Part shown: one piece after another, positions 3,161 to 64,000 of the stretch
Layout of the letters: every line of letters begins with the position of its first letter
How positions within the stretch are numbered: the first letter of the stretch is position 1
Assembly (NCBI GenBank): GCA_050273025.1
Contig: CP158635.1
Span: forward strand, 16,802,001-16,866,000
DNA: 64,000 nucleotides
Source: Cenococcum geophilum
Taxonomy: Eukaryota
Direction of reading: 5' to 3'
The notes under the pieces: generated by a model
What the model saw: the letters and a program-made list of their open reading frames with translations, nothing else
Told to the model about the DNA's origin: nothing
The model's database searches: none
Program-made: the position numbers and the translations under genes

Positions 3161-4972
3161 ATTGCTTTATAGTTGACATTGATCGTACTCTCTACCGTAT
3201 TCCAATTCCCCGCTAAACTTCTTTTCCTGGTCTAAATAGAGCCTTGTAAGCTCTATAAGTAACTTTAGGATGCCTCCGAGTAGCGCTTGCATTATAGGCT
3301 GCGGTAGGGATATAGAGCTTAATAGAACAGGGCGTGGTACCTAATCTTGCTATAGTAGAGTTCGAAGGTTATTAAATCGCGAAGTAGGGGGATCTTGCGC
3401 TTAAGGAGCAGTAGTCGAAGTTGTGGGTTAAATTAGTAGATACTAGGGAACTAAAGACGGAGGTAAAGGTAATAGATACTAAGGAACTAAAAATAGAGGT
3501 AGAAGCGATGGATGCGGAACTAAAGACGGAGGTAAAAGCGATAGATATAGAACGGAAGAACTTGTACCTAAAGTAATGGAATTAGGACACGTCTCTAGTA
3601 GTATATTACTTAAATTCCATTATAAGCTAAGCTTCTTTTAGTGCTTAATCTCTTATAAAGTCCATTTGTGCTCCTCCCTTATGTTAATAACATGCTCCTA
3701 AATATTATCTCTAATAATGCCCCCATCTATAGGGATAAATACTCTATTTTCCCAAAGGAAGTTACGGAAGTTTTATACAATAACCTTCTTCATAAGAGCC
3801 TATATTTCCTTTATCCATCTAATAAAGTCCTCCTTTATACAATACTATAGCATAGTATCCTCGTATTCGCTGTCTTTATAATATACTATACGGTATAATA
3901 GGAATCCATTTAGGTCCTATTGCTTAGCAATTATAGGGTTAATATCTCTGTTTTATATCTCTGGGTTAATATTATTCTCGTACTTCTTTGGGTAGGTTAA
4001 CACTATAGTAGGTATAGAATTAACGAGGTGTCGTACGTTAAAGGTAGGTAGGATTTTCGGTTTTATAGGATTTCGTAGGTTTACTGTTAAGAGGTAGGCA
4101 ATTTAAGATATTGTTTAACGCGTTTTAGACGTCGTTTAACGCGTTTTAGACGTTAACTTAAGACCCTAGGTTTAGTAACACTTCTAACCTAAAGTATAAC
4201 TAAATCTTTATAAACGCGATTGTTCTGTATAATAGACGCAACTTAGTATCTCCTAGTACTTAGTAACACTTCTATTACTAGTTTTCCGTAAGTTTAAGGT
4301 AGCATAATATCGCCGGAATCCATTCCATATAAGCGCATATAGCACCCCTATATAAGACTATCTCTTTTATTCAAAAACCTAGCTGCTCTATAGTTAACTG
4401 TATATTTAACCACTAATTAGTATTAGTTATATAGGGTAACTTATAACGGAACCTTGTAGCAAGTACTATAATAGGCTTGTTAATAGGCTAGGTATATAAG
4501 TAATGTAAATTAAAGTTAATAATGTAATAATAACTGGTAGAGTGGTTGCCTAATAGATTAACTCTAATTGTATTCTAAGAATTACTATAAGGAAGGAACT
4601 ATCTAGGTAGGGACTAAGGGTCCTTAAATACACAACCGTACTCCTATAAAATCCTCCTTATATATAATATACGTATTATACGTATTATACGTACGTTTCC
4701 TTTATATACTGCGTATATTATATATAATATTATATAACCTTAGCTACTATTCCTTATTATATAGTTTTATTAGCTCTATCCTAGACTATACCTAAATTAA
4801 CTAACTAGCTTTCTCTAACTCTTCTTTAAGTAGTTATAATATTATACTTAAAGCGTCCGTAACACTATCTCCCTCCTTTTTATCTTTATCCTTAAAGATT
4901 CTAAATATCTCTAAGTTATTTACTAGAGGTATAATATCCGTCTAATTAATTTAGTTAATATTGTTATTTATT

Positions 4973-5657
4973 ATACCTAAAGCTCTCTCTTCCTCGCAAG
5001 CGCAACGTCGTACTTATACTATTGCTATGATATTATCTCTTAGTAAGATTATATTATCTCCATATTCTCGCTATTTAAAAAAGGGGTTAGTTTATGTTAT
5101 ATTAGCGAACCTATCTTTATAATAACCGTCCTTTTACTTAAAGTATATAAAAGCAAATATTTGTTTATCCTATAACGTTCGCTCTATCTCTAATGCTAAA
5201 TATACGCAACCTATTATCCTTAATAGTCGTCTAGTTTTCTAGTTAATTTGCCTTAGGGTTTTATATTTAATCTACTACTATACAGCTAGATAGTAAACTA
5301 TCTTAGGCTCTTACTAAGTTAGAATATTCTTATAACGTAGAGTAGAAGGCTCTTAAAGCCTATATTACGGCGTCCGCTTAATTACTCCGTCTTAAAAAGG
5401 TTTATAAAAAGGTCCGCTTAAAGAAGTAAAAACTTATAAAATAAGGTCTATAGGAACTTAGTAATAAAAGAATAGATTCTCCTCTAACTAAAAAGGAAAT
5501 AGATCTAAGTAGCTCGGCAACTACTCTTCTTAGGTCCCCCTTAGGTAACTTATTCTTTAGTAATCCTTCTTTATTAACACTGCCTAACCTAATTTCTCCT
5601 AATACTCTTATACCTTTCTTATAGCATTCCTTAGGTTCTCTAATAGTTTTTAGGTAA
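4973..5657 (+). pseudogene. RIP-degraded antisense accessory gene of Gypsy A (Zn2Cys6-like plus coiled coil; inferred intron 5202-5256), copy 1
   Basis: Aligns codon for codon with 62807-63491. The start ATA, the Tyr codons at Cys positions and the internal stops are all RIP-type changes. Confidence 0.7.
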
Positions 5658-8600
5658 TCTCGTCATAGCCTATCTACTTTACTTTATACTATAATTTATC
5701 GTTAATGTCCTCGTAACTAACAATCTTTAAAACTTACTATTTATCTTCTTCCTATCCTTTATATGTGTCTGCTTTATAAACTAGTAGCTTAATATTCCCG
5801 TATATTAGCTCTAGTATTATAATATACTATATAGGGTAAATTTTTATTTTAGCTAGTAGGTTTAACTTAAACGTAACTAGTAAAATCCTTTATTTAATTT
5901 TAAAAGGTCCTAGTCTAATATAGTCTAACTTTTTACTTAGTCGTTAACTCTTAAAGTTTTTATATAGTAGCTACACTTTATCTCCCTCCTTAAGATCTAG
6001 TCCCTTAGATCTTCTAGCGTTATAGTACTTCTTTATTCTTTACTATACTATTTTTACTAATTCTATAAGGTTTATATAAAGATTTATTAACATCTTTATT
6101 CTTTCTTTAGCTATACTACTTATTTTCTTTACTTACTATAATAATAATGATATCCTTAGCTTGTATCTATAATTTGCCTTAAATAGTAATATACCTATTC
6201 CTTCTTATAGTATTATATTATATATAAACTATATAATTAGTAATAATAATACCCAATTATTCTATACGTAATTAATATAGTGCCTTAAATACTACTCTAT
6301 TGTCTAGTTTAATCTTTCTATTTAGCTATCTATCTGCGGATAATATATAGTAGAAGTTACTGCTTTAACTTTTTGTTCCGCTAAGAATACCTCTTAAAAT
6401 ACTATTATAAATCTTAAATCCCTATCCAATATAATCTTATTTAGTGCTCTATATTTTATAAACACTTCTTTAATATAAATTCTAGTAACATCCTCTGCTA
6501 ATATTTCTTCTATATATGCTATAAAGTATCCCTACTTTATAAGCTTATCTACTATTACTAAGATCGCGTTATAATCTTATCTAGTAATAGGATCTTTTAA
6601 TTTTAGTAACTTAATAATAAAGTCCTATAATATAACCTCCTATAGTCTCTCTAGTATTTTAATAGGTTATAGCCCTTTATACGGCTTATGCCTTATTAGT
6701 TTATTTCTTTAGTAATTTAAATATTCTCTTATAATTTTTTATGCTAACCCCTAGATTCTATTAATAATATATTTCTCTTAGAGTCTTAACACTAAGCCTA
6801 TAGCTCTATTATGTCCCTAAGTTATTTCCTTATAGAAATCTTCCATAAAATACTCTACTATACTTTTTAGGATATACTTTACTTCTTAATTTTCGTATAT
6901 ATCCATTTATAGATCTTCTAGTTATACTTTTAGAATTCTTTATATCTAAAAGCTCTCTAGTAACTTATAAACTTTATCCAGTTCTTCTTATATTACTATA
7001 ATTTTTAGATAATTATATCTAATTAATCCGTCTATATCTTTTCGCAGTAAAGCCCCTAATAGCTTTTTATTATTTTATAGTTTAGCCTTTTAACTTAGAA
7101 TATCTGCTTATATATTGTCTATACCTTTAGTATACTAAATCTTAAAATAGTATTTTATAAGTATCTCTGCCTATTTAACCTATCTCTAGTTAAGTTCCTT
7201 TATTATTAGGAATCCTATTAGGTTTTTATAATCCATTTTAACTATAAATAGTTTCTCTATACCTTATAAAAATGCTTTTTATTTCTTTAGTACTATAACT
7301 ATACCTAATAACTTCTTATTATAAATGTTATAGTTTAACTCTAGTAGTATTATCTTTTAACTATAATATGCCACTAGGTACTATCTATCTTAATATTTCT
7401 ATATAAAGTATACCCCTAGTATATAGTCTAATATATCTATTTCTATAACTATCTCTAGTCCTAATTAATAGATCTTAAGAACTAGCTCCTAGGTAAATAA
7501 CTCTTTAACTTTTTTAAAAAGTTCTTACTATTCCTCTCCCTATATCTATAGTTCTTCTTTCTTTATTAATTACGTAAATAGTTTAATATCCTTTAACTAC
7601 TACGCTATAAACCTTCTATAGTAATTATAAAACCCTAAAAATAATCCTATCTGCGTAATATTCTCTAGTTCTTACTAATTTACTATAGCCTTAATCTTCT
7701 TTAGATCTATACTAAGTTAGCCTAGTTTAATAATAAATTTAATAAAATTGGTCTTCCTAGTAAAGAACTTGCATTTCTTAATTGCTACTAATATCTATTC
7801 TTCTTATAGTCTCTTTAAAACCCATTTAACGTGTTCTCTATATTCTTCCTTAGTTATTAAGTAGATAATAATATCGTTAAAATATACTATAATAAATTTA
7901 TCTAAGTATTCTCCTAATATATTATTAATGCGCTTCTAAAATATTACTAGTGCGTTTATAAGCCTAAATTATATAACTAATAGTTTATATAGTCCTTCCT
8001 TTAATTTAAAGGCTGCCTTTTATTTATTACCTTCCTTAATCCTAATTTAATAGTACGCCTATCTTAGATCTATCTTTATAAAGATTTATACATTACTTAT
8101 CCTATCTTAGATTTTGCTAATTAAGGGTAAAGAATACCTATCCTTTCTAGTAATGCTATTTAACTATCTATAGTTAATATATAATCTTAGTTTACTATTC
8201 TTCTTTAGTATAAATAATACTAGATAGCCCGCTAATAACTATAATAGTCTAATATATCCCTTTTATAAGTTTTCTTAGACAAACTCCTTTAATGCTCTAC
8301 TTTCTTCTTTAGTAAGCTTATAGATTAAAAAGAACCTTAAACTTATTCCTAGTTTTAATTCTATCTTATAGTTTTATACTATATACTTTAATAGCTTTTT
8401 ACTTTCTGGTAATTATAATTTCTTATTATACTTATAGTATCTCTTTAATATATAGCTTAATCCTTTTTCTATCTCTTTATAGGTCGCCCCTACTTAGTAC
8501 TATACTAACTTAGCCTATTATTGTATTTTACGGCATTAAGTATCTCTAATATTAACCTAACCCGTAATCTAATTAATTCTTAGATTATATTCCTATAACT

Positions 8601-11600
8601 AAGGCATTTCTAGTACTACCTTATTATTCCCCAATAGTAATATATTAAAAGACATCTTAATTTATCTTCCTTTAATAGTTAACTAAATAGGTCCTATTGT
8701 AAGATTAATAATGCCTCCTCTATAGGCTATTAGGTCTTTTAAAATTATTACTAATAGATAAGGATACTCCTTTTTCCTATACGGTAATCCTATTTTTTTT
8801 AACTGCTGCTAGTAAGATATAGTTCCTTATTGCTTTACTATCTATTAATACTTTAAACTGTTAATCTTGCCACTTAATTTATAAATTTAGGTGCTATTTT
8901 TAAATTCCTTTAAGGGTTTAAGGCTCTACTATTAGTTCCCTTTAGTTTTATAGGCCTCTACTTTTCCTAACTATTAGCTACTTAATCCTATCTATACTTA
9001 GTCCATCTTTAGCCAATACTTAGTTCGCTTTTTATCTTTAATATACTATAGACATATATTTTCTAGGCATTCCTACCACTATTATCCATCTAGATATTCT
9101 TCCATAAGGAATCTTCCTAATTAAAGTATTAAGTCCCCTTAGCTTTATACTTCTACTAGGTGCTAACTATATATATACTTAACATTTTTATATCTTACTT
9201 TATCCAGTACCTAATATATCCTTACTAGGTACTTCCGGTTTTTATCTTTAGGTACTTTATATATATTATATATATTATCTATATATACAATCTATACTAA
9301 TATATAGTATACTAGGTGTCTTAGGTTAACTCTTAGCTTATCTTTATTCTTAAGTTTAAACCTTTCCCGTATTAATCTAAGCGTTATAACTTCGTTTATA
9401 GGTACTAAGATTTACCTCTTACTTCTCTAATCCTCTAATTACTCCTTTAGATCCTTTAACATTATAATTAAGGCTCCTTTAATATAACTTATAGCCTTTT
9501 CTATAATTAGGTAATCTTAAATAACTTTTTCGTCTAACTATATATAGAAATCTTCCCACTTATTGTTATATCGTTACCTATACCACTTTTAGTATAGCTC
9601 CTTAAATATATATGGCTTATTCATAAAGAAGTATCTTTTTATTACTATATCGTAACAGCCCTTTATATGTTATTCTTTAAACCTAGTTAAAATCCCTAAA
9701 TCCTCTTCTTATTCTAGTTTAATAAGCCACTTAGCTCTTAGTATGCCTACTCTAAGCCTATTAGTAATTCTTTATATAGGTACTCTATTCCTTATACGAC
9801 CTAGTATACTAAATCTCTTATTTAGTTTCTATTCTTACTATAAGGTAATTCTAACTCTAAATTCCTCTATAGTTTCTTTCTTTTCGCGTTTTATAAGTGG
9901 GTCCTTAAAGTCTTCTTACTTCTTAACCTTATTAATAGCCCTTATTTATATCTTAAAGTCTTAATTTTATAGAATTCTTAATTCTAAGCTTGCTTTTATC
10001 TTAAGCTTTACTCCTACCTTAATCTAATTAGGCTTAAGTATTCTTATCTTATCTTAAAAGTCTTAAATCTTACTTATCTCATCTTAAGAGTTTTATGCCT
10101 ATAGGAAACTCTATCCTAAGCTTATTTATATATCTTTAAACTAAGCTATTACTCTACTCCACCAATTCCCGTCTATTATAGGTCCTTAGGTATACCTTAT
10201 CTTATTTTAAGAATCTTAGTTATCTCCTATCTTATCTTAAAAATCTTAAGCCTTTAGCCTTTTGCCTTTATTAAGTAATAAAGTAGCACTAGTAGTTGTC
10301 TGCTTGCTTAGTCTTTATAAAACACTTTTCCTTTTATCTTATAAAGCGATGGATGCCGTATTTAATGGTATTATAATTCCTATTACTAATCCTTACTTTA
10401 TAGCGGTCTTAGTCTCTACTTCTAATATAACTTTTTTAAGTTTTATATATTCCTAGTAAACTACCTTTATTACCTCGTTATCTGTAAATATTTCGCCTTT
10501 ATTAAACTTATTATCTTTAATATTTAATCTATATAATAGTTTATTGGTTCCCTTATATTCTAAAGGTTTTAGCTTTTATAGCTAATAGCTTACGCTATAC
10601 TTAGCGTCTTTATAGATTTAGTATGCGTTATTATAATAAAACGCGAAACTTTTAATTAAACATTTTTTTGTTCCTTATAGTATACTATTATCCCTCTATA
10701 TATATATATCTTCTACTAGTCTAGTTCCGTTTATTATATAGTAACCCTAACTATCTTTATAATCCCTTATAAAGTAACCTTATTTCCTATAATTTATATA
10801 AGCTCCGTCTTTAAACTACTAACTTTATTATAGAGTCCGCCTAAACATCTTCTGCTACTAAGATCCCTAATTTAGCCTTTACTCCTTAATCCTATAATTA
10901 CTAAATCCTTAACCTCTAAGTTTTTATAGTTTCTTACTCTATCTCTTATAGGCTTCTTTAGTACTACTTAGGTCTATTAGCTCTACGCTATACCACAGTT
11001 TTTAACTTAGCTTTAGTTATTATATACTCTACGTCTTATATAACTATAAAACTCTATCCTAACCTCTTTTAGTCTGTTTCCTTTAGTAGATCTAATTATT
11101 AATCTTAATCGTTTAATCTATTAAATCCCGTAGGGTATCTATATCTTTTATTAAAATAATTATATCCTAGATTTTAGCCTTAAGTCCTTATTTATACTAT
11201 ACTATAAGCGCCCTATTATTTTACTTAACTTATATAGCTAATATCTAAAATTATATTATATACTTAATTACCAAGGTTTATTATATAATGTCCTAGAGTT
11301 TTCTTTCCGCTATAGTTACTACCTCTAGATCTTTAAATATTTGCGTAAGTTGTTTTATAAACCCTTCCTAGCTTAAGAATATAAAACCACACCTCTTAAT
11401 TAGTGGTCGTTATCCTATTTACCTATATTTCTATAAGGTAAGGCTTAAACTACTTAAGTGCCATTCCTAATAGGAATAGTCCCGCATATACTATTCGATC
11501 TATAGGTATTAGCAGCTTTACTCCTTCTTATATAACTTTAAAATACATTTACATAAGAAATCCTTTAAGCTTTAATCTTTCTCCTAAGTATCTCTTAATT

Positions 11601-12156
11601 AATAGTAGCTTAATCTTTACTGCTCCTATTCTATTAACCCTTTCTTCTAATACCGCATTATTTATTATTAGTTAGTTAACTATCTCTTATAGTTATCTAA
11701 CCGTTATAGGTTACTATAAGTTAGTATCTATTATACTAGTATTACCTCCTAACCTTAAAGTAGTTGCCGCCGTTAATGGCGTTATAGTAGCTACTTTTAG
11801 TAGTATATTGTTTAACTTTCTATATTTAATACCGTAACTAGGTAGTAATTATATAACAGAACCTTGTAGTAAATACTATAATAGGCTTATTAATAGGCTA
11901 GGTATATAGGTAATATAAATTAAAGTTAATAATATAATAATAACTAATAGAGTGGTTACCTAATAAATTAACTCTAATTATATTCTAAGAATTACTATAA
12001 GGAAGGAACTATTTAGGTAGGGACTAAGGGTCTTTAAATATATAACCGTACTCCTATAAAATCCTCCTTATATATAATATATGTGTTATATATATTATAC
12101 GTACGTTTCCTTTATACACTGCGTACATTATATACAACATTATATAACCTTAGCTA

Positions 12157-13174
12157 GCCGTTGAAAACGGACTCTGCACCTATACGTGGTGACGGCTACA
12201 AACCTAGTCTTCGAAGTTTAGATCTAGAGCCAACGCAGAGACGTCGCACAGCGTGCGGACAGGACCTGGTGGTGGTTGCGGGCGTTAAGGGCGGTGGTGA
12301 AAAAATTTCGGATGGTGAGATCTTAAAAACCACTACTGTTGGCCCTCTACAATACGACGACTACTACTATTCTCCTATCTAGGGCACCTGTACGATCCGA
12401 CATGGATGCATAGTATTTGATAGCATCCCCTGACCCCCAATAGAAAGCATTAACAACCTCTTATATTAACGAACGAGCGAACGTAAGCGAGTAAACGAAC
12501 GAGCAAATATACGGCCCCTTTTAACCCCTAGGGCGATCGCCCGCGGAGCATGCGGTTACTCGCCGTACTGCCGTAATACTACTGAAGCGACAGCCGGATA
12601 TAACCCCGTATGGTTTTCCTTGTCTCCTCTTAACGGAGTAGTGCCCCTAGAGAGGGCCTAGTGACTAGGGCCTAGGCATAAAAGATACCCAGGTACACAC
12701 ATCCCGCTTTTAGCTTTTAGTATTAGAATAGTAAAACGGATGAATCCCCCTTACGCCTTCGATAGGCCCTAGGGGGGGAAAGGCATGGCGTATATGGCAA
12801 TGGTTAAATAAGAGATAGTATATAGGGGATAGCCAAGATATTAGAAATAATAATAATACAGCAATTAATTAGCAAGGCCTAGCTGGGACGTAGTGAACCC
12901 TAGCTTAGATAAGCTAGAGAAGGAAGTAGTGGTTCCTAAGGAGTTCGAACATCTAAGGAGGATAGGATGTAGCCGTAGGCCCGCAGGGCCGCCGCTATAG
13001 ACGGATATAGCAAATTGGGGTTTTTTATCCTACTAAGGTGGCTTATAGGGTTTTTCCTCCCCTAACCTAACTGCAGGGTTTTCTTTATGTAAACTATAAG
13101 TTTTCCCCCTATGACGGAGTAGTCTGCGTAGGCCAGATAGGATCCGTATTAGACGTTAATTAAAGATCTACTAC
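12157..13174 (+). mobile_element. ~1.02 kb non-coding, non-LTR retroposon (SINE/MINE-like) with CTA tail, copy 1
   Basis: 16-bp TSD TATATAACCTTAGCTA (12141-12156, 13175-13190) inside the Gypsy A LTR. It ends in ctactac, and a second copy lies at 40762-41783. Confidence 0.88.
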
Positions 13175-14910
13175 TATATAACCTTAGCTACTATTCCTTA
13201 TTATATAGTTCTATTAGCTCTATCCTAGACTATACCTAAATTAACTAACTAGCTTCCTCTAACTCTTCTTTAAGTGGTTATAATATTGTACTTAAAGCGT
13301 CCGTAATATAACTTACTAATAACGACTACTCGAGTAGGTTATAGTGATATTAGTTAATAAAGCTTATTAATTGGAATGAGGAAGGGTAAGGAGCCTAAGA
13401 CTCCTTACTACGCTAGTGCCGCGGCGTTACGTAACGACCGCTTGCCTTATTCCCGTTAGTAAACTTTATAATTTTAGTATTAACTATTTAACTCTAAGGC
13501 TAAATACTTTATTTACCTATTATAGAACTCTTTTCCTTTATTACGGAAGTTTTATCTTTTTAATTTTCTACTTTAATCTATCCTCGTAGATAACTAGCTT
13601 ATACTCTTATCTTTTTTTTTAGAATCTTAAGCCTTTAGCTTTTTGCCTTTATTAAGTGCTAAAGTAGTTTACTATTTTACTTCTCTTATATCTTATAAAG
13701 TAATAAATATTATGTCTAATAGAGTCTTAATCCCTATTATTAATCTATCCTTTATAGTAGATTTAACTTCTACCTCTATTATAATATCTCTAAGGTTTAT
13801 ATACTTCTAGTAAGCTGCCTTTATTACCTTATTATTACTAAATATTTTACCTATATTAAATTTATCGTCCTTAATATTCGATCTATAAGATAGTTCGTTA
13901 GTTCTTCTAAACTTTATTAATTTTGGCTCCTATAGCTAATAGCTTATACTATACTTAACGTCTTTTAAATTTAGTATATGTTATATAATAAAACGCAAAA
14001 CTTCTAATTAGACACTCTTTGGTTCCTTATAGTATACTATCGTCCCTCTATATATATGTGTTGTTTACTAGCCTAATTCCCTTAACCATATAGTTACTCT
14101 AACTATCTTTATAGTCTCTAGTAAAATAACCTTATTTTCTACAATTTATATAAGCTTCTTCTTTAAACTATTTTTCTTGCTATTAAGTCCGCCTAAATAT
14201 CTTCTGCTATTAAGATCCCTAGTTTAGCCTCTACTTTTTAAACCTTTAATTACTTAAACCTTATCCTCTAAGTTTCTATAGTTGTTTTATTTATCTCTTA
14301 TAGGCTTTTCTAGTACTATTTAGGTCTATTAGCTTCACGCTATACTATAGTTTCTAATTTTAACTTTATTAATACGTACTTTGCGCCTTGTATAACCATA
14401 GAACTCTATTTTAACCCTTCTTAGTCTATTCCCTTTAGTAGATTCTATTATTAATCTTAATCGCTTAATTAATTAGTTCCCTTCGGGTTTCCATATCTTT
14501 TATTAGGATAATTATATTCTAAACTTTTACTTTAAGTCCCTGTTTATACTATGCTATAAGTACCTTATTATTCTATTTAACTTATATTACTAATATTTAA
14601 AACTATATTATATACTTAATTAATAAAATCCTTTATACTAGGTCTCTAAATATTTGCGTTAGGCGTTTTACGAACCTATTCTAACTAGTAAACATATACC
14701 GTACCTCCTAATTAGTAGTTGCTATACCGTTTTCCTATACCTCCGTTAGATAAGGCTTAAACTACTTAAGTCCCTTTTCCGTTAGAAATAATCCTATATA
14801 GGCGACTTAGTCTATAGACGTTACTAACTTCACTCCTTTTTACGTAACCTTAAAGTGTATTTACGTAAGAAATCCCTTAAGTTTTAACTTCTCCCCTAAG
14901 AATCGCTTAA

Positions 14911-39587: not shown

Positions 39588-42500
39588 TATTATAGAGTAA
39601 GTATAAGCGGCAATAATATATAGCAAGGTAGATATTATTAAGCTATATATATAAACTGTATAAGGAGGTTAAGACGTTACGTAAGAAAAGAAGGTAGGAA
39701 AATAGGAAGAAAGGGTATATATTATAGACTTAGTTGCTTAGTTAATACGTATATAAAGTAGAATAGGATTTAGGTAGTAGTCCTAGCAGAACTTAGTAAA
39801 ACTTAATAGAACTTAGTAGAATATAGCAGAATACGGTAGGTTGCCGTTAGATTGCCGTAGATTACTATTAGATTACTATCTTATAGTCGGTCTCTAGTTA
39901 CTAAGTTAGTAAAAATAGATAGATATATATAAGGTATTACAGGGGTGTCCTATAATAGTACCCCTCTTTAAACTTAAGCTTCTGCGAGATAGGGCTATAG
40001 TAGTTTTAGGTAGAGTTTATAAAAGTCTTCTATAGTTTATATAAGTCCTATAGAGTTAACGGGTTCCTATAAAGGCTTAGTAAAGCCTCTCTATTTTATA
40101 AGATATATATACTAGCGTTTCCGTTTATTATACTTAATATTATTAATTCTTTTAATAAAGTACTTATTCTTACTATCTACTTTAATTAGTAGGGGAGGGT
40201 TTTATATCTATTTAGGCAGGGCGTCTAATATAAAAGTAATAGGGTAAAGGACTGACATATAGAATATAGGGTGGATTTTAACCGTATTAGGGAGCTTTAG
40301 TTAATAGGCGTAGGAGGAGACCACTTTCTTAACCTTATAAGGGCCAGCGTTCTTCTAATTAAGCTTCTTAGTAGGTTATTTTATATTTAAATCTCTTATA
40401 TTTAGCTAGACAAAGTTACTAATTTAATAGGCTAGTACTAGGGTTTATTTCTTATTCGCTACGGCTTTATAGATAGATTAAGCCCATATTATTTTATTAG
40501 CAAGAAACTATTATAGTTCCTCTATCTTCTCTATAAATTTATTTACTTTTATAACTTATAAGGCGTAATAAATAGGGCAAGGAATATTACTAAAGGGTTT
40601 AAAACCTATTTATAAATACTAGCCGTAGTTAGCTAGAAATAGGGAGACCTTTATAGTTTTTAAGACGGAATTGTTTATAGTAAACTTAGTAAATTATAAG
40701 CTAGTTAATCTAGTTATCTTATAAGTATAATATATATATCTAAATATATTATTCTATTATGGCCGTCGAAATCGGACTCTGCACCTGTACGTGGTGACGG
40801 CTACGAACCTGGTCTTCGAAGTTCAGATCTAAAGCCAACGCAGAGACGTCGCACAGCGTGCGGATAGGACCTGTGGTGGTTATAGGCGTTAAGGGCGGTG
40901 GTAAAAAAATTTCAGATGGTGAGATCTTGAAAACCACTACTGTTGGCTCTCTATAGTACAACGACTACTATATTCTCCTATCTAGGGCACCTATACAATC
41001 CAACATGGATGCACAGTATTTAATATCACCCCCCGTCCCCTAGTGGAAAGCATTAACGACCTTATATTAATGAATAAGCAAACGCGAATAAACGAACGAA
41101 CGAGCAAATATACGGCCCCTTTTAACCCCTAGGGCGATCGCCCGCGGAGCATGCGGTCACTCGCCGTACTGCTATAATACTACTAAAAGCGGCAGCTGGA
41201 TAACCCTATACGGTTTTCCTTATTTCCTCTTAACGGAGTGGTGCCCTTAGAGAGGGCCTAGTGACTAGGGCCTAGGTATAAAAGATACCCAGATATACAC
41301 ATACATACATATCCCGCTTTTATCTTTTAGTTTTAGGATAGTAGAACGGATGAATCCCCCTTACGCCTTCGATAGGCCTTAGGGGGGGGGAGGCATGGTG
41401 TATATGGCAATAGTTAACAAGAGACAGCATATAGGGGTAGTTAAGATATAGGGCACAACTATAAGCACACAGCAATCGATCGGCAAGGCCTAGCTAGGAC
41501 GTAGTAAACCCTAGCTTTAAATAAGCTAGAGAAGGAAGTAGTAGTTCCTAAGGAGTTCGAAACATCTAAGAAGGAGGACGAGCTATAGGCCCGCAGGGCC
41601 GCTGCTTATGCAGGCATAGCAATTTGGGGTTTTTTATCCTACTGAGGTGGCTTATAGGGGTTTTCCTCCCCCCAATAGCAAGGGGTTTTTCCTGTTAATA
41701 TTACTTTCCCCTTATGTACGGAGTAGTCTGCGTGGGCTTAGATAGGATCCGTATCAGACATTAATTAAAGAATCTACTACTACTATTATTCCATTATAGT
41801 ATTTGACGTTCTATTTAACTATCTATTTCTAGGTAGTATGCTATAAATAACAGTGCTTTAATATAGAGTTAGGTAGTTAGTTCTTTCTAAAATATAGAGA
41901 TAAACTAGTTACCTTTATTAGAGATAATTGTTTTAGGGAGTTTATAGAGTTTCTATATATAATCTAGAAACAGTTAGGCGATAGTAGGTATAAATATATT
42001 AGGGTAGGCGATTAAGTGTCTTATCTTAGATAGTTAGTCTATAACTACTATAATATTTATATAGCCCTTATTTACGGGGAGGTTAATAATAAAGTTAATT
42101 AAAATATCCTTTTATCTTTAGTCTGGAATAGGTAGTAGCTTTAAAAGGCCATTATACGTCTTATATAAGGTTTTAGCTCGTCAGTAGATATAGCAGCTAA
42201 AGACGTATCTTTATATTATATTATATATATTTAGCTAGTAATACTCCCATTAAAGTAGCTTTAGGGTTTTTCCTTAGCCTAGGTAGCTAGCTACTAGTAG
42301 GTTATATATATATTTAAGAAGCTTAAGCTTAAGTTTATTATAATTAGGGATAACTAGACAGTTTTAGTAATATAAGTAGTTTCCGCAAGCTTTATATTTA
42401 CTTAAAGAGATCTTTTTAGAGCGTCTAACGCTATTATAGATTAGCTTAAGCGTCTTTTAGATAAACTTATTATTTGGGTATTTATTAATTATAATCTGTT

Positions 42501-62272: not shown

Positions 62273-64000
62273 TATAACGGAACCTTGTAGCAAGAACTAC
62301 GATAGGCTTATTATTGGGCTAGGTGTGTAGGAAATATAAGTATAAAAGTCAACAACATAATAACAACTGGTGGAGTGGTTGCCCAACAGATTAACTCCAA
62401 TTATATTCTGAGAATCACTACAAAGGAAGGAACTATTTAGGTAGGGACTAAGGGTCCTTAAATACACAACCATACTCCTATAAAATCCTTCTTATATATA
62501 ATATACGTTTTATATATAAGGTACGTAAGTTCCTCTCGTTCCTTTTATTTAATACGTAGCATATTATATAACCTTAGTTACTATTCCTTGTTATATAGTT
62601 CTATTGGCTCTATCCTAAACCGTGCCTAAATTAACTAACTAGCTTCTTCCGTCTCTTTTCTAAGTAGTTATAACATTGTACTTAAAGCGTCCGTAATACC
62701 ATCTCCCTCCTCTTTATCTTTATCCTTAAAGATTTAAAACATCTCTAAGTCGTTTACTAAAGGTATAATATCCGTCTGATTAATTTGGTTAATATTATTA
62801 CTTATTATGCCTAAAGCAATTTCTTCTTTATACGCCCAACGTCGTGCTCGCACTATTGCTGTAATATTATCTCTTAGTAAGATTATGCCGTCTCTATATT
62901 CTCGTTACTTAAAAGAGGGGTTGGTTTATATTATATTGGCGAACCCATCTTCACAACAACTATTTTCTTGCTTAGAGTGTACTAAAGCAAATATTCGTTT
63001 ATCCTATAACGTTCGCTCTACTTCTAATACTAAATATACGCGATCTATTACTCTTAATAGTCGTCTAGTTCTCTAATTAATTTATCTTAGGGTCTTATAT
63101 TTAATCTACTGCTATGCGGCTAAATAGTAAACTGTTATAAGCCCTTGCTAAGTTAGAACGTTCCTATAACGCGGAATAAAAGGCTCTAAATACTTAAATT
63201 GCGGCATCTACTCGTCTGCTTTATCTTAAAAAGGTTTATAAGAAGGTTTGTTTTAAGGAGTAGAAACTTATAAAATAAGGTTTATAGGAACTAGGCAATA
63301 AAAGAACGGACTTTCCTCTAACAGAGAAGGAAACAGATCTAAGTAGTTTAGTAACTGCTCTTCTTAGATCCCCCTTAGGTAACTTATTCTTTAGCAATCC
63401 TTTTTTATTAATACTGCCTAACCTAATCTCTTCTAATACTCCTATACCTTTCCTATAGCGTTCTTTAAATTCTCTAGTAGCTCCTAGGTAGTCTTAGTAT
63501 AGCCTATCCACTTAACCTCGTACTATGTTTTATTGTCAATGTTCTTATAATTAATAATCTTTAATACTTACTATTCGTCTTCTTCTTATCCTCTATACGT
63601 GTCTACTTTATAGACCGGTGGCTTAACATTTCTATATACTGGCTTTAGCATTGCGATATACTATATAGGGTAGATCTTCATTTTAGCTAGTAGGTTTAAC
63701 TTAAACGTGACCGGTGAAATCTTCTGCATAATTTCGAAAGGTCCTAGTTTAACATAGTTTAACTTCTTGCTTAGTCGTTAACTCTTAAAATTTTTATATA
63801 GTAGCCATACTTTATCTCCCTCCTTAAGATCTAGTCCCTTAGATCTCTTAGTATTATAGTACTTTTTTATTCTTTCTTATACTTTCTTTACTAATTCCAT
63901 AAGGTCTATATAAAGATTTATTAATATCTTTATTCTTTCTTTAGCTATACTACTCGTTTTCTTTACTTGCCGTAGTAACAACGATATTCTTAGCTTATAT
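62273..64000 (-). mobile_element. Ty3/Gypsy family A copy 2: 3' LTR 62273-62698, 3' region, chromodomain and integrase; continues beyond the window
   Basis: Colinear with 4442-6165. Confidence 0.93.
62807..63491 (+). pseudogene. RIP-degraded antisense accessory gene of Gypsy A (Zn2Cys6-like plus coiled coil; inferred intron 63036-63090), copy 2
   Basis: The ATG is retained. The pattern Y-x2-Y-x6-Y-x13-C-x2-C-x8-Y uses TAT/TAC, the RIP products of TGT/TGC. After removing a 55-nt (G>A)TACGC...CTAAT...TTAG intron, the frame continues into a heptad-like region. Confidence 0.72.

Follow-up and report, generated by a model that had tools for sequence, protein, structure and literature searches.

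A RIP-inactivated copy of a probable spliced antisense gene beside the 3' long terminal repeat of a Ty3/Gypsy retrotransposon of Cenococcum geophilum

Accessory genes are rare among retrotransposons with long terminal repeats (LTRs), and a function is known for almost none of them. The question raised by the locus described here is whether the spacer between the end of pol and the polypurine tract of such an element, read on the strand opposite pol, once was a gene of this sort. The locus lies near the end of a 64,000-nucleotide stretch of the Cenococcum geophilum genome (GenBank assembly GCA_050273025.1, contig CP158635.1, positions 16,802,001 to 16,866,000 of the forward strand), hereafter the window, in whose coordinates positions are given. 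A first-pass annotation, made from the letters alone, had proposed a Gypsy retrotransposon carrying a spliced antisense gene of a Zn2Cys6-like/coiled-coil kind, degraded by repeat-induced point mutation (RIP). Analysis of the window together with homologous copies from public assemblies indicates that positions 62807–63458 of the + strand are very probably a RIP-inactivated copy of a real ancestral gene, dead at this locus. A clade of ascomycete Ty3/Gypsy chromoviruses carries this gene opposite gag-pol, in the interval between the end of the chromodomain and the polypurine tract. It is divided into two exons by a short spliceosomal intron, which has GT..YAG ends and measures 55 nt here and 54–133 nt across 76 copies. 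The best explanation overall, and on balance a probable one, is that the accessory gene is real, belongs to one kind with brtn of Boty-like elements and encodes a zinc-binding nucleic-acid factor. The parts of the gene in this copy of the element (copy B) are as follows.

62807–63035, + strand: exon 1, with the ATG, a basic N-terminal stretch and a six-Cys cluster (from the translation, 77 homologous open reading frames and codon counts).
63036–63090, + strand: intron of 55 nt, starting ATACGC (from GTACGC by RIP), with CTAAT at 63073–63077 and a TTAG acceptor.
63091–63458, + strand: exon 2, with a long helix, a basic motif, a Ser/acidic stretch and a hydrophobic C-terminus (from the translation, tblastn and periodicity).

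Most of this anatomy agrees with what had first been described. The ATG at 62807 lies approximately 107–108 bp inside the LTR boundary (LTR end at 62699–62701), and the spacing from the end of pol, on the − strand, to the polypurine tract is about 0.69 kb, close to the 0.7 kb originally given. From this ATG frame 1 is open for 89 codons (98 from stop to stop) and reads Y31-S-R-Y34, six residues, Y41, thirteen residues, C55-L-E-C58, eight residues and Y67. The 55-nt segment at 63036–63090 contains the ATACGC, CTAAT and TTAG motifs, its removal joins T|GG and reaches the frame of the second part, and each of the seven internal stops of the joined frame in copy B is TAA or TAG, all as had been noted. 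The end of the frame required correction: placed at 63491, for a product of about 209 codons, it is found at the TAG at 63456–63458, giving 198 codons, and in other families the antisense frame stops four codons sooner. Exon 2 products of two natural copies (L002 and L025) gave tblastn matches at 63156–63443.

The copies in the window are without present function. The donor of copy B is mutated to AT and its frame holds seven stops, and the start codon of a second copy of the element in the window (copy A) is lost. Evidence from the window alone is modest: the [C/Y] spacing pattern is matched once in its six frames, with a mean of 0.1 in first-order random windows (n = 40), and 23 of its 11,973 stop-to-stop segments reach 89 codons. 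It is the comparative evidence that is decisive.

Homologues of the gene are abundant. A search with the 89-residue open reading frame (ORF) as query returned 77 homologous ORFs from public metagenome and other assemblies, with E values down to 1e-27. Ninety-four representative clusters were matched at E ≤ 1e-3, 10 of them at E ≤ 1e-10, and a profile search found 851 proteins at E ≤ 0.01. Of 602 candidate stretches in a metagenome scan with a four-sequence alignment as query, 511 were confirmed, and the scan yielded 80 loci. The aligned set used below comprises 77 sequences, being 75 metagenome loci and the two window copies, with residue counts by column taken from a separate 78-row protein alignment, in which the six columns of the cluster read as follows.

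Column 31: Y in 44, C in 34.
Column 34: Y in 49, C in 28, H in 1.
Column 41: Y in 70, C in 8.
Column 55: Y in 53, C in 11, V in 1.
Column 58: C in 49, Y in 15.
Column 67: Y in 39, C in 20.

None of these columns contains Arg, whereas true Arg columns of the same alignment mix R with C, Y and H. The proposal that the Tyr codons of the window had been Cys codons before RIP is upheld by these C/Y columns, given that RIP makes TAY from TGY and never the reverse. The further proposal, that the stops go back to sense codons, is supported as well. Counted as codons over the 77 copies, the ratios of TGY to TAY at the six positions are 44/32, 71/6, 8/69, 62/15, 73/4 and 53/24, and all six Cys are retained in seven natural copies. 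In each of the four metagenome loci examined, pol domains are present just downstream on the opposite strand, so that the antisense arrangement is a trait of the element clade and extends beyond the window.

Base composition along these loci was recorded separately. Across 54 metagenome loci the median G+C is 0.40 for the antisense gene, as against 0.35 and 0.30 for its flanks towards the LTR and towards pol. The excess within the gene is possibly a selection effect, since loci resembling an unmutated query had been picked out. At L001 (1020–1435) mutation has spared only the first two thirds of the antisense gene, counted from its 5' end, which have approximately 50% G+C, and the LTR and pol flanks are heavily RIP-mutated; the contig is possibly a chimeric assembly.

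Coding constraint was assessed by counting, for each codon position, the alignment columns with a transversion polymorphism whose minority class occurs in at least 2 of the 77 sequences. This test is independent of RIP, because RIP does not produce transversions. The polymorphic columns at codon positions 1, 2 and 3, out of all columns at each position, are listed below.

Exon 1: 23/76, 17/75 and 49/75 (p = 8.4e-8).
Exon 2, in the frame reached via splicing: 39/109, 38/108 and 68/108 (p = 1.6e-5).
Intron: 9/19, 5/18 and 7/18 (p = 0.47).
Polypurine tract to ATG: 9/35, 10/35 and 13/35 (p = 0.56).

The phase of this periodicity shifts by one base across the intron, matching the prediction from splicing. 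Ratios of nonsynonymous to synonymous substitution rates (dN/dS), calculated by the Nei-Gojobori method between de-RIP consensuses of four families, were 0.07–0.25 for exon 1, 0.14–0.22 for the first part of exon 2 and 0.28–0.57 for its last part; the four frames with other third positions gave values above 1 for exon 1 and the first part of exon 2. These comparisons support purifying selection on the antisense gene in at least four element families. An intact example occurs at natural copy L002, where the spliced frame runs for 217 codons with no stops (ATG at 1679, donor GTACGT at 1905, exon 2 from 1966). In 65 of 68 natural copies stops are fewest in the spliced + frame, for which the median is 3.0 per 100 codons as against 5.9–11.5 for the other five frames. 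The de-RIP consensuses, proposed at the outset as a check, hold 0, 0 and 1 internal stops in the spliced + frame of three families; that of the fourth was left uncounted, its frame having been lost through an alignment indel.

The segment at 63036–63090 keeps its position in 76 of the 77 aligned copies. At its donor, 36 of these 76 have GT and 40 have AT, the RIP product of GT, in keeping with the original suggestion that the ancestral donor was GT; the acceptor is AG in 71 and AA in 5. Donor hexamers include GTACGT (L002 and L017), GTATGT, GTGCGT and GTACGC. With GT..AG ends, a frame that is restored by its removal and no coding signal inside, the segment has the properties of a spliceosomal intron, and its lengths form two classes, of 54–64 nt (46 copies) and 91–133 nt (30 copies). 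Without splicing, the exon 1 frame meets a stop inside the segment, which is why most database ORFs are only 81–108 residues long. The one exception is L001, from which 52 nt are missing: the first five bases of the intron are kept and the first two of exon 2 are gone, leaving the Cys part and the helix as one continuous 115-codon ORF. This loss is imprecise, unlike the precise loss of the cDNA type. It had been argued that an antisense intron would survive reverse transcription, and its retention in 76 of 77 copies fits that argument: lying antisense to the genomic RNA, the intron is unspliced there and is copied along with the element. Taken together, the Cys columns, the GT..AG segment, the periodicity, the dN/dS values and the intact L002 bear out the central proposal of the first-pass annotation, that of an element-borne, antisense, intron-bearing gene.

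The lengths of the intron show a further regularity. Those seen are 54, 55, 61, 64, 91, 115, 124, 127, 130 and 133 nt, and 75 of the 76 equal 1 modulo 3, so that the variants differ by multiples of three, a constraint that introns do not need. A constraint from the opposite strand may lie behind these lengths.

The intact product is approximately 200–217 residues long. It starts with a basic N-terminal stretch and six Cys spaced 2-6-13-2-8, after which comes a Trp with its codon interrupted by the intron. A variable helical stretch, in which Glu, Arg, Ala and Leu are abundant, leads to a conserved basic motif, then to a Ser/acidic stretch and to a conserved hydrophobic C-terminus, encoded in an overlap with the final codons of pol. 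It is safest to speak of a zinc-cluster-like six-Cys module with a long helix after it. An AlphaFold2 model of P0132, the one natural continuous form, contains a single helix at residues 47–109, with block means of the predicted local distance difference test (pLDDT) of 94–98 over residues 51–110 and of 48–58 in the Cys part. Of the coiled coil originally proposed, a long and confidently predicted helix is so far what the model supports; a crude heptad occupancy was not above that of shuffled sequences, the score being reached by 388 and 267 of 500 shuffles. The product would be a zinc-binding protein acting on nucleic acid. Its prediction as a DNA-binding regulator is more tentative and is held with less than even confidence. 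Were it one, it would most likely act as a DNA-binding factor on the LTR or chromatin of its own element, tuning transcription, silencing or integration.

The observations that weigh against this reading are given here, together with the alternatives to which they belong. The first alternative accepts a real gene but takes its Cys module to be DUF3716-like, or some other zinc module, and not a Gal4-type binuclear cluster, and gives the product another job. Candidate jobs, each of them possible, are binding of chromosomal DNA for integration targeting, service as a chaperone or adaptor for RNA or for Gag/integrase, and the blocking of host silencing proteins. This alternative is possible although rather unlikely. 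Fungal Zn(II)2Cys6 clusters have, in the PROSITE range, the spacing C-x2-C-x6-C-x(5-12)-C-x2-C-x(6-8)-C. The present product resembles the Gal4 type in having six Cys in two C-x2-C-x6/8-C halves near the N-terminus, in the basic residues before the cluster and in the long helix and acidic/Ser stretch after it. It differs in the 13-residue loop between the halves, one above the PROSITE range, in the third Cys, which is often Tyr, and in its length of only some 200 residues without the middle domain of fungal transcription factors. The loop and the Tyr fit a classical Zn2Cys6 cluster poorly. The third Cys (62927–62929 in the window) is TAY in 69 of the 77 copies and TGY in 8, and the copies with the least mutation (L001, L002 and P0275) also have Tyr there, while the other five Cys are mostly kept.

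Membership of the Zn(II)2Cys6 family, as originally suggested, could not be established. Pfam Zn_clus (PF00172) is the commonest weak match, found at E ≤ 1 for 11 of 16 natural exon 1 products and for 9 of 31 in a second set; the matches mostly cover half of the profile only, all 16 products remain under the cut-off of 21 bits, the highest of them reaching 18.5. A Pfam search of the window copy in every frame, stops being replaced by X, gave no match to Zn_clus. DUF3716 (PF12511) is matched at E ≤ 1 by 8 of the 16 products over nearly the whole profile (positions 3–59 of 59), with a best E value of 0.0036 and one of 0.018 for P0275, but the best score of 17.6 bits is likewise below its cut-off of 22. 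The ESM Atlas returned unnamed Ascomycota clusters and one cluster with 28% DUF3716 members at a score of 0.85; all scores are below 0.9, so that these clusters are leads only. A profile search of PDB sequences gave 0 matches at E ≤ 10, and AlphaFold2 applied to the six-Cys domain alone, metal-free, gave a mean pLDDT of 45.3, an unreliable fold that supports neither assignment. The best 120 of the 851 profile matches contain no named homologue, all being entered as 'hypothetical protein', and the profile search found no match among proteins of 320–2000 residues, which is weak evidence.

DUF3716, a fungal domain that is small and contains Cys like the module described here, occurs on accessory proteins that transposons carry: PMC8232023 places it on REP9-1 and REP9-2, which belong to a Zymoseptoria class II transposon. 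According to PMC10776026, one DUF3716 protein is reportedly an orthologue of a telomeric-sequence-binding protein. Both statements are leads only. The known carriers named in such sources are not genes of retrotransposons.

Expression data add one further point against the reading of a gene. No transcript was seen, and no RNA reads supporting a + strand splice junction were found at the 15 joints listed of 31, in RNA run X21, a run that says nothing of unmutated copies elsewhere, and RIP-dead copies are not expected to be expressed. The run placed 81 reads on the stretch, 80 of them less than 90% alike and 78 only partly on it. DNA runs show the family to be highly repeated, and the other copies mostly have ATA in place of both ATGs (at 62809 in 92% of the depth of DNA run X1, at 62887 in 87%). 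Reads of X21 were also seen to pile up on the LTR stretches 62368–62485 and 62663–62721, continuing into unlike, G+C-rich sequence; their probable origin is in related LTRs at other places or in read-through transcription.

The second alternative takes the frame under constraint to lie on the same strand as pol, either extending pol at its C-terminus or forming an extra sense ORF, with the + strand ORF as its mirror image. Taken alone, periodicity and dN/dS leave the + frame indistinguishable from its mirror on the − strand, the frame with the same third codon positions, which has equal periodicity and a similar dN/dS over exon 2. Open consensus frames count only in comparison with other frames, because the de-RIP rule removes stops everywhere. 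Differences between intron length classes by multiples of three would also suit a pol-strand frame, as would the − strand ORFs described in the following paragraph. Against it, every − frame has at least three stops in each family consensus, at places differing between families, where the spliced + frame has the few given above. The + strand of L002 is intact and its − strand broken, and the + frame has the fewest stops in nearly all natural copies. The one-base jump in periodicity falls exactly at the GT..AG segment, which the other strand reads as CT..AC. For exon 1, dN/dS is lower in the + frame in 4 of the 6 family pairs and tied in 2, and past the chromodomain the third positions of pol are not the variable ones (11/53, 24/52 and 16/52). 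The + strand is favoured because of the frame jump at GT..AG, the intact L002, the stop counts and the family consensuses, and a sense-strand ORF, which is very improbable, was rejected on the − frame stops, the + strand of L002 and the frame jump.

The − strand ORFs in question occur both in the window and outside it. A mirror − frame of 85–86 codons, which is not the pol frame and shares its third codon positions with exon 2, is open in both window copies (63493–63239 and 5662–5405). Over the nearly unmutated L017, long − strand ORFs cover the region too: at 733–1940 (− strand, G+C 0.53) the pol frame continues for some 140 codons past the chromodomain and across exon 2, and a second − strand ORF of 201 codons spans exon 1 and the polypurine tract. 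The antisense gene of L017 carries a frame shift in exon 2.

The idea of a chance open frame in a RIP-mutated spacer, with the Cys pattern read into Tyr-rich junk, could appeal to the frequency of TAT and TAC in RIP-mutated DNA and to the 23 open segments of at least 89 codons in the window, but is refuted, leaving next to no probability, by Cys at the same columns in other copies, by codon periodicity (p 8e-8 and 2e-5), by dN/dS far below 1, by the stop counts and by the intact natural copy L002.

With the reading of an ancestral antisense gene retained, its place among known systems can be considered. An antisense gene at this place is known already, having been in print since 2011: brtn of Boty-like elements, lying between pol and the 3' LTR (Zhao et al. 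2011, Virology 417:248, as cited in PMC8365987, PMC7264820, PMC4227169 and PMC5987419). In these sources, BcGypsy1 is said to carry brtn, which is missing from the current genome annotation (PMC8365987), the function of brtn is given as unknown (PMC7264820) and a Monilinia transcript is reported to be similar to BRTN (PMC5987419). The text supplements of PMC8365987 do not mention brtn, and a search of open-access full texts and bioRxiv for a zinc-cluster antisense gene in fungal Gypsy elements gave only citations of brtn. Like the present gene, brtn is an additional gene that a chromodomain-bearing Gypsy element of a fungus carries opposite gag-pol, in the space separating pol from the 3' LTR. 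The same position is found in copies A and B and in the four metagenome loci examined, and the host elements are likewise chromodomain-bearing Ty3/Gypsy elements of a RIP-bearing ascomycete type. The window copies differ in being RIP-dead and from another fungus. The present gene is fairly probably of the same kind as brtn, and a homologue of it.

Antisense ORFs between pol and the 3' LTR are also described, in PMC7264820, for the plant Gypsy elements RIRE2, Grande1, Retand and PvRetro13, where they share the position and orientation of the present gene, are conserved within families and have no known function. They differ in their plant hosts and in belonging partly to non-chromovirus lineages, and a relation in sequence is not expected. 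HBZ of human T-cell leukaemia virus type 1 (HTLV-1), a vertebrate retrovirus, is another antisense gene that is spliced and sits at the 3' end of a retroelement; it encodes a nuclear regulator with a helical dimerizing part. Its transcription starts from the 3' LTR and its product is a basic leucine zipper (bZIP) protein, whereas the candidate DNA-binding part of the present gene is a Cys cluster and not a bZIP, so that the comparison is one of analogy only. A broader and more doubtful proposition is that the ascomycete chromovirus clade might consist of 'complex' retrotransposons that themselves supply a sequence-specific DNA-binding factor, the small product of an antisense mRNA that is spliced, composed of a Cys6 cluster and a long helix, and binding the LTR or flanking chromatin so as to set transcription, escape from silencing or integration sites. 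It would be a counterpart of HBZ, with brtn a member whose domain make-up has perhaps gone unrecognized in print.

The role of brtn-type genes, a long-standing puzzle, becomes directly testable with purifying selection, a conserved intron and a Cys cluster with a long helix documented for such a gene over hundreds of copies in several families. For annotation, real ancestral genes can hide within RIP-mutated repeats, and gene callers overlook the antisense gene even in unmutated elements.

The window in which the two copies lie is AT-rich repeat DNA, with a G+C of 0.24–0.39 in 2-kb steps and a strong RIP signature (TpA/ApT 1.64; (CpA+TpG)/(ApC+GpT) 0.46). Both represent a single LTR element, which has its pol on the − strand and LTRs of approximately 427–429 bp. 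They are 83% identical, transitions making up 165 of 183 substitutions, and 98.0% identical over 901 bases once transitions are collapsed, from which it follows that their divergence is almost all due to RIP. The features of the two copies are as follows.

62273 to the window end: element copy B.
62273–62701, − strand: 3' LTR of copy B, about 429 bp, matching both LTRs of copy A.
62702–62731, − strand: polypurine-tract-like run adjoining the LTR of copy B, pyrimidine-rich on the + strand (read directly).
63418–64000, − strand: 3' end of copy B pol, truncated by the end of the window (with X for each stop of the frame).
About 63430–63567, − strand: chromodomain of copy B (Pfam Chromo, E 0.092, under the cut-off).
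About 63637–63819, − strand: SH3_Tf2-1 of copy B (Pfam, E 1.7e-10).
4442 to about 13308: element copy A.
4442–4868, − strand: 3' LTR of copy A.
4973–5624, + strand: antisense gene of copy A, dead, with ATA for a start, at a constant offset of 57834 from copy B.
4973–5201, 5202–5256 and 5257–5624, + strand: exon 1, intron and exon 2 of the antisense gene of copy A.
5585–11851, − strand: gag-pol remains of copy A (Pfam on the frame with X at stops).
11852–13308, − strand: 5' LTR of copy A, split by a 1018-bp insertion (12157–13174), resuming at 13175 and ending at about 13308.

The inner boundary of the copy B LTR is placed at 62699–62701, the point at which the 5' and 3' LTRs of copy A cease to resemble each other. 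The same purine-rich tract is found at the matching place in L001, and the last pol codons of copy B overlap the end of its antisense gene. Domains detected in copy A are RVT_1 (E 1e-15), RT_RNaseH_2 (2.3e-12), RT_RNaseH (7.1e-12) and SH3_Tf2-1 (0.0011). The window copies and metagenome loci together provide RVT_1, RNase H, integrase, SH3_Tf2-1 and Chromo, identifying the host as a chromodomain-bearing Ty3/Gypsy element, and the closest ESM Atlas clusters are from Ascomycota (leads only). The antisense genes of copies A and B align without internal gaps. When the window was searched by tblastn with seven natural-copy queries, copies A and B were the only matches, and a transition-collapsed BLAST of the window for further copies gave, past A, B and one short fragment, noise only.

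The 1018-bp insertion in the 5' LTR of copy A is a repeat, comparatively G+C-rich (0.46–0.47), that is present at 12157–13174 and again at 40762–41780, with 85% identity between the two. Inside the LTR it has a perfect 16-nt direct repeat on both sides, and the second copy has a similar one of about 14 nt. Both copies terminate in TAC repeats, and a search of Rfam with the repeat gave no match. In these respects the repeat looks like a non-autonomous non-LTR retroposon.

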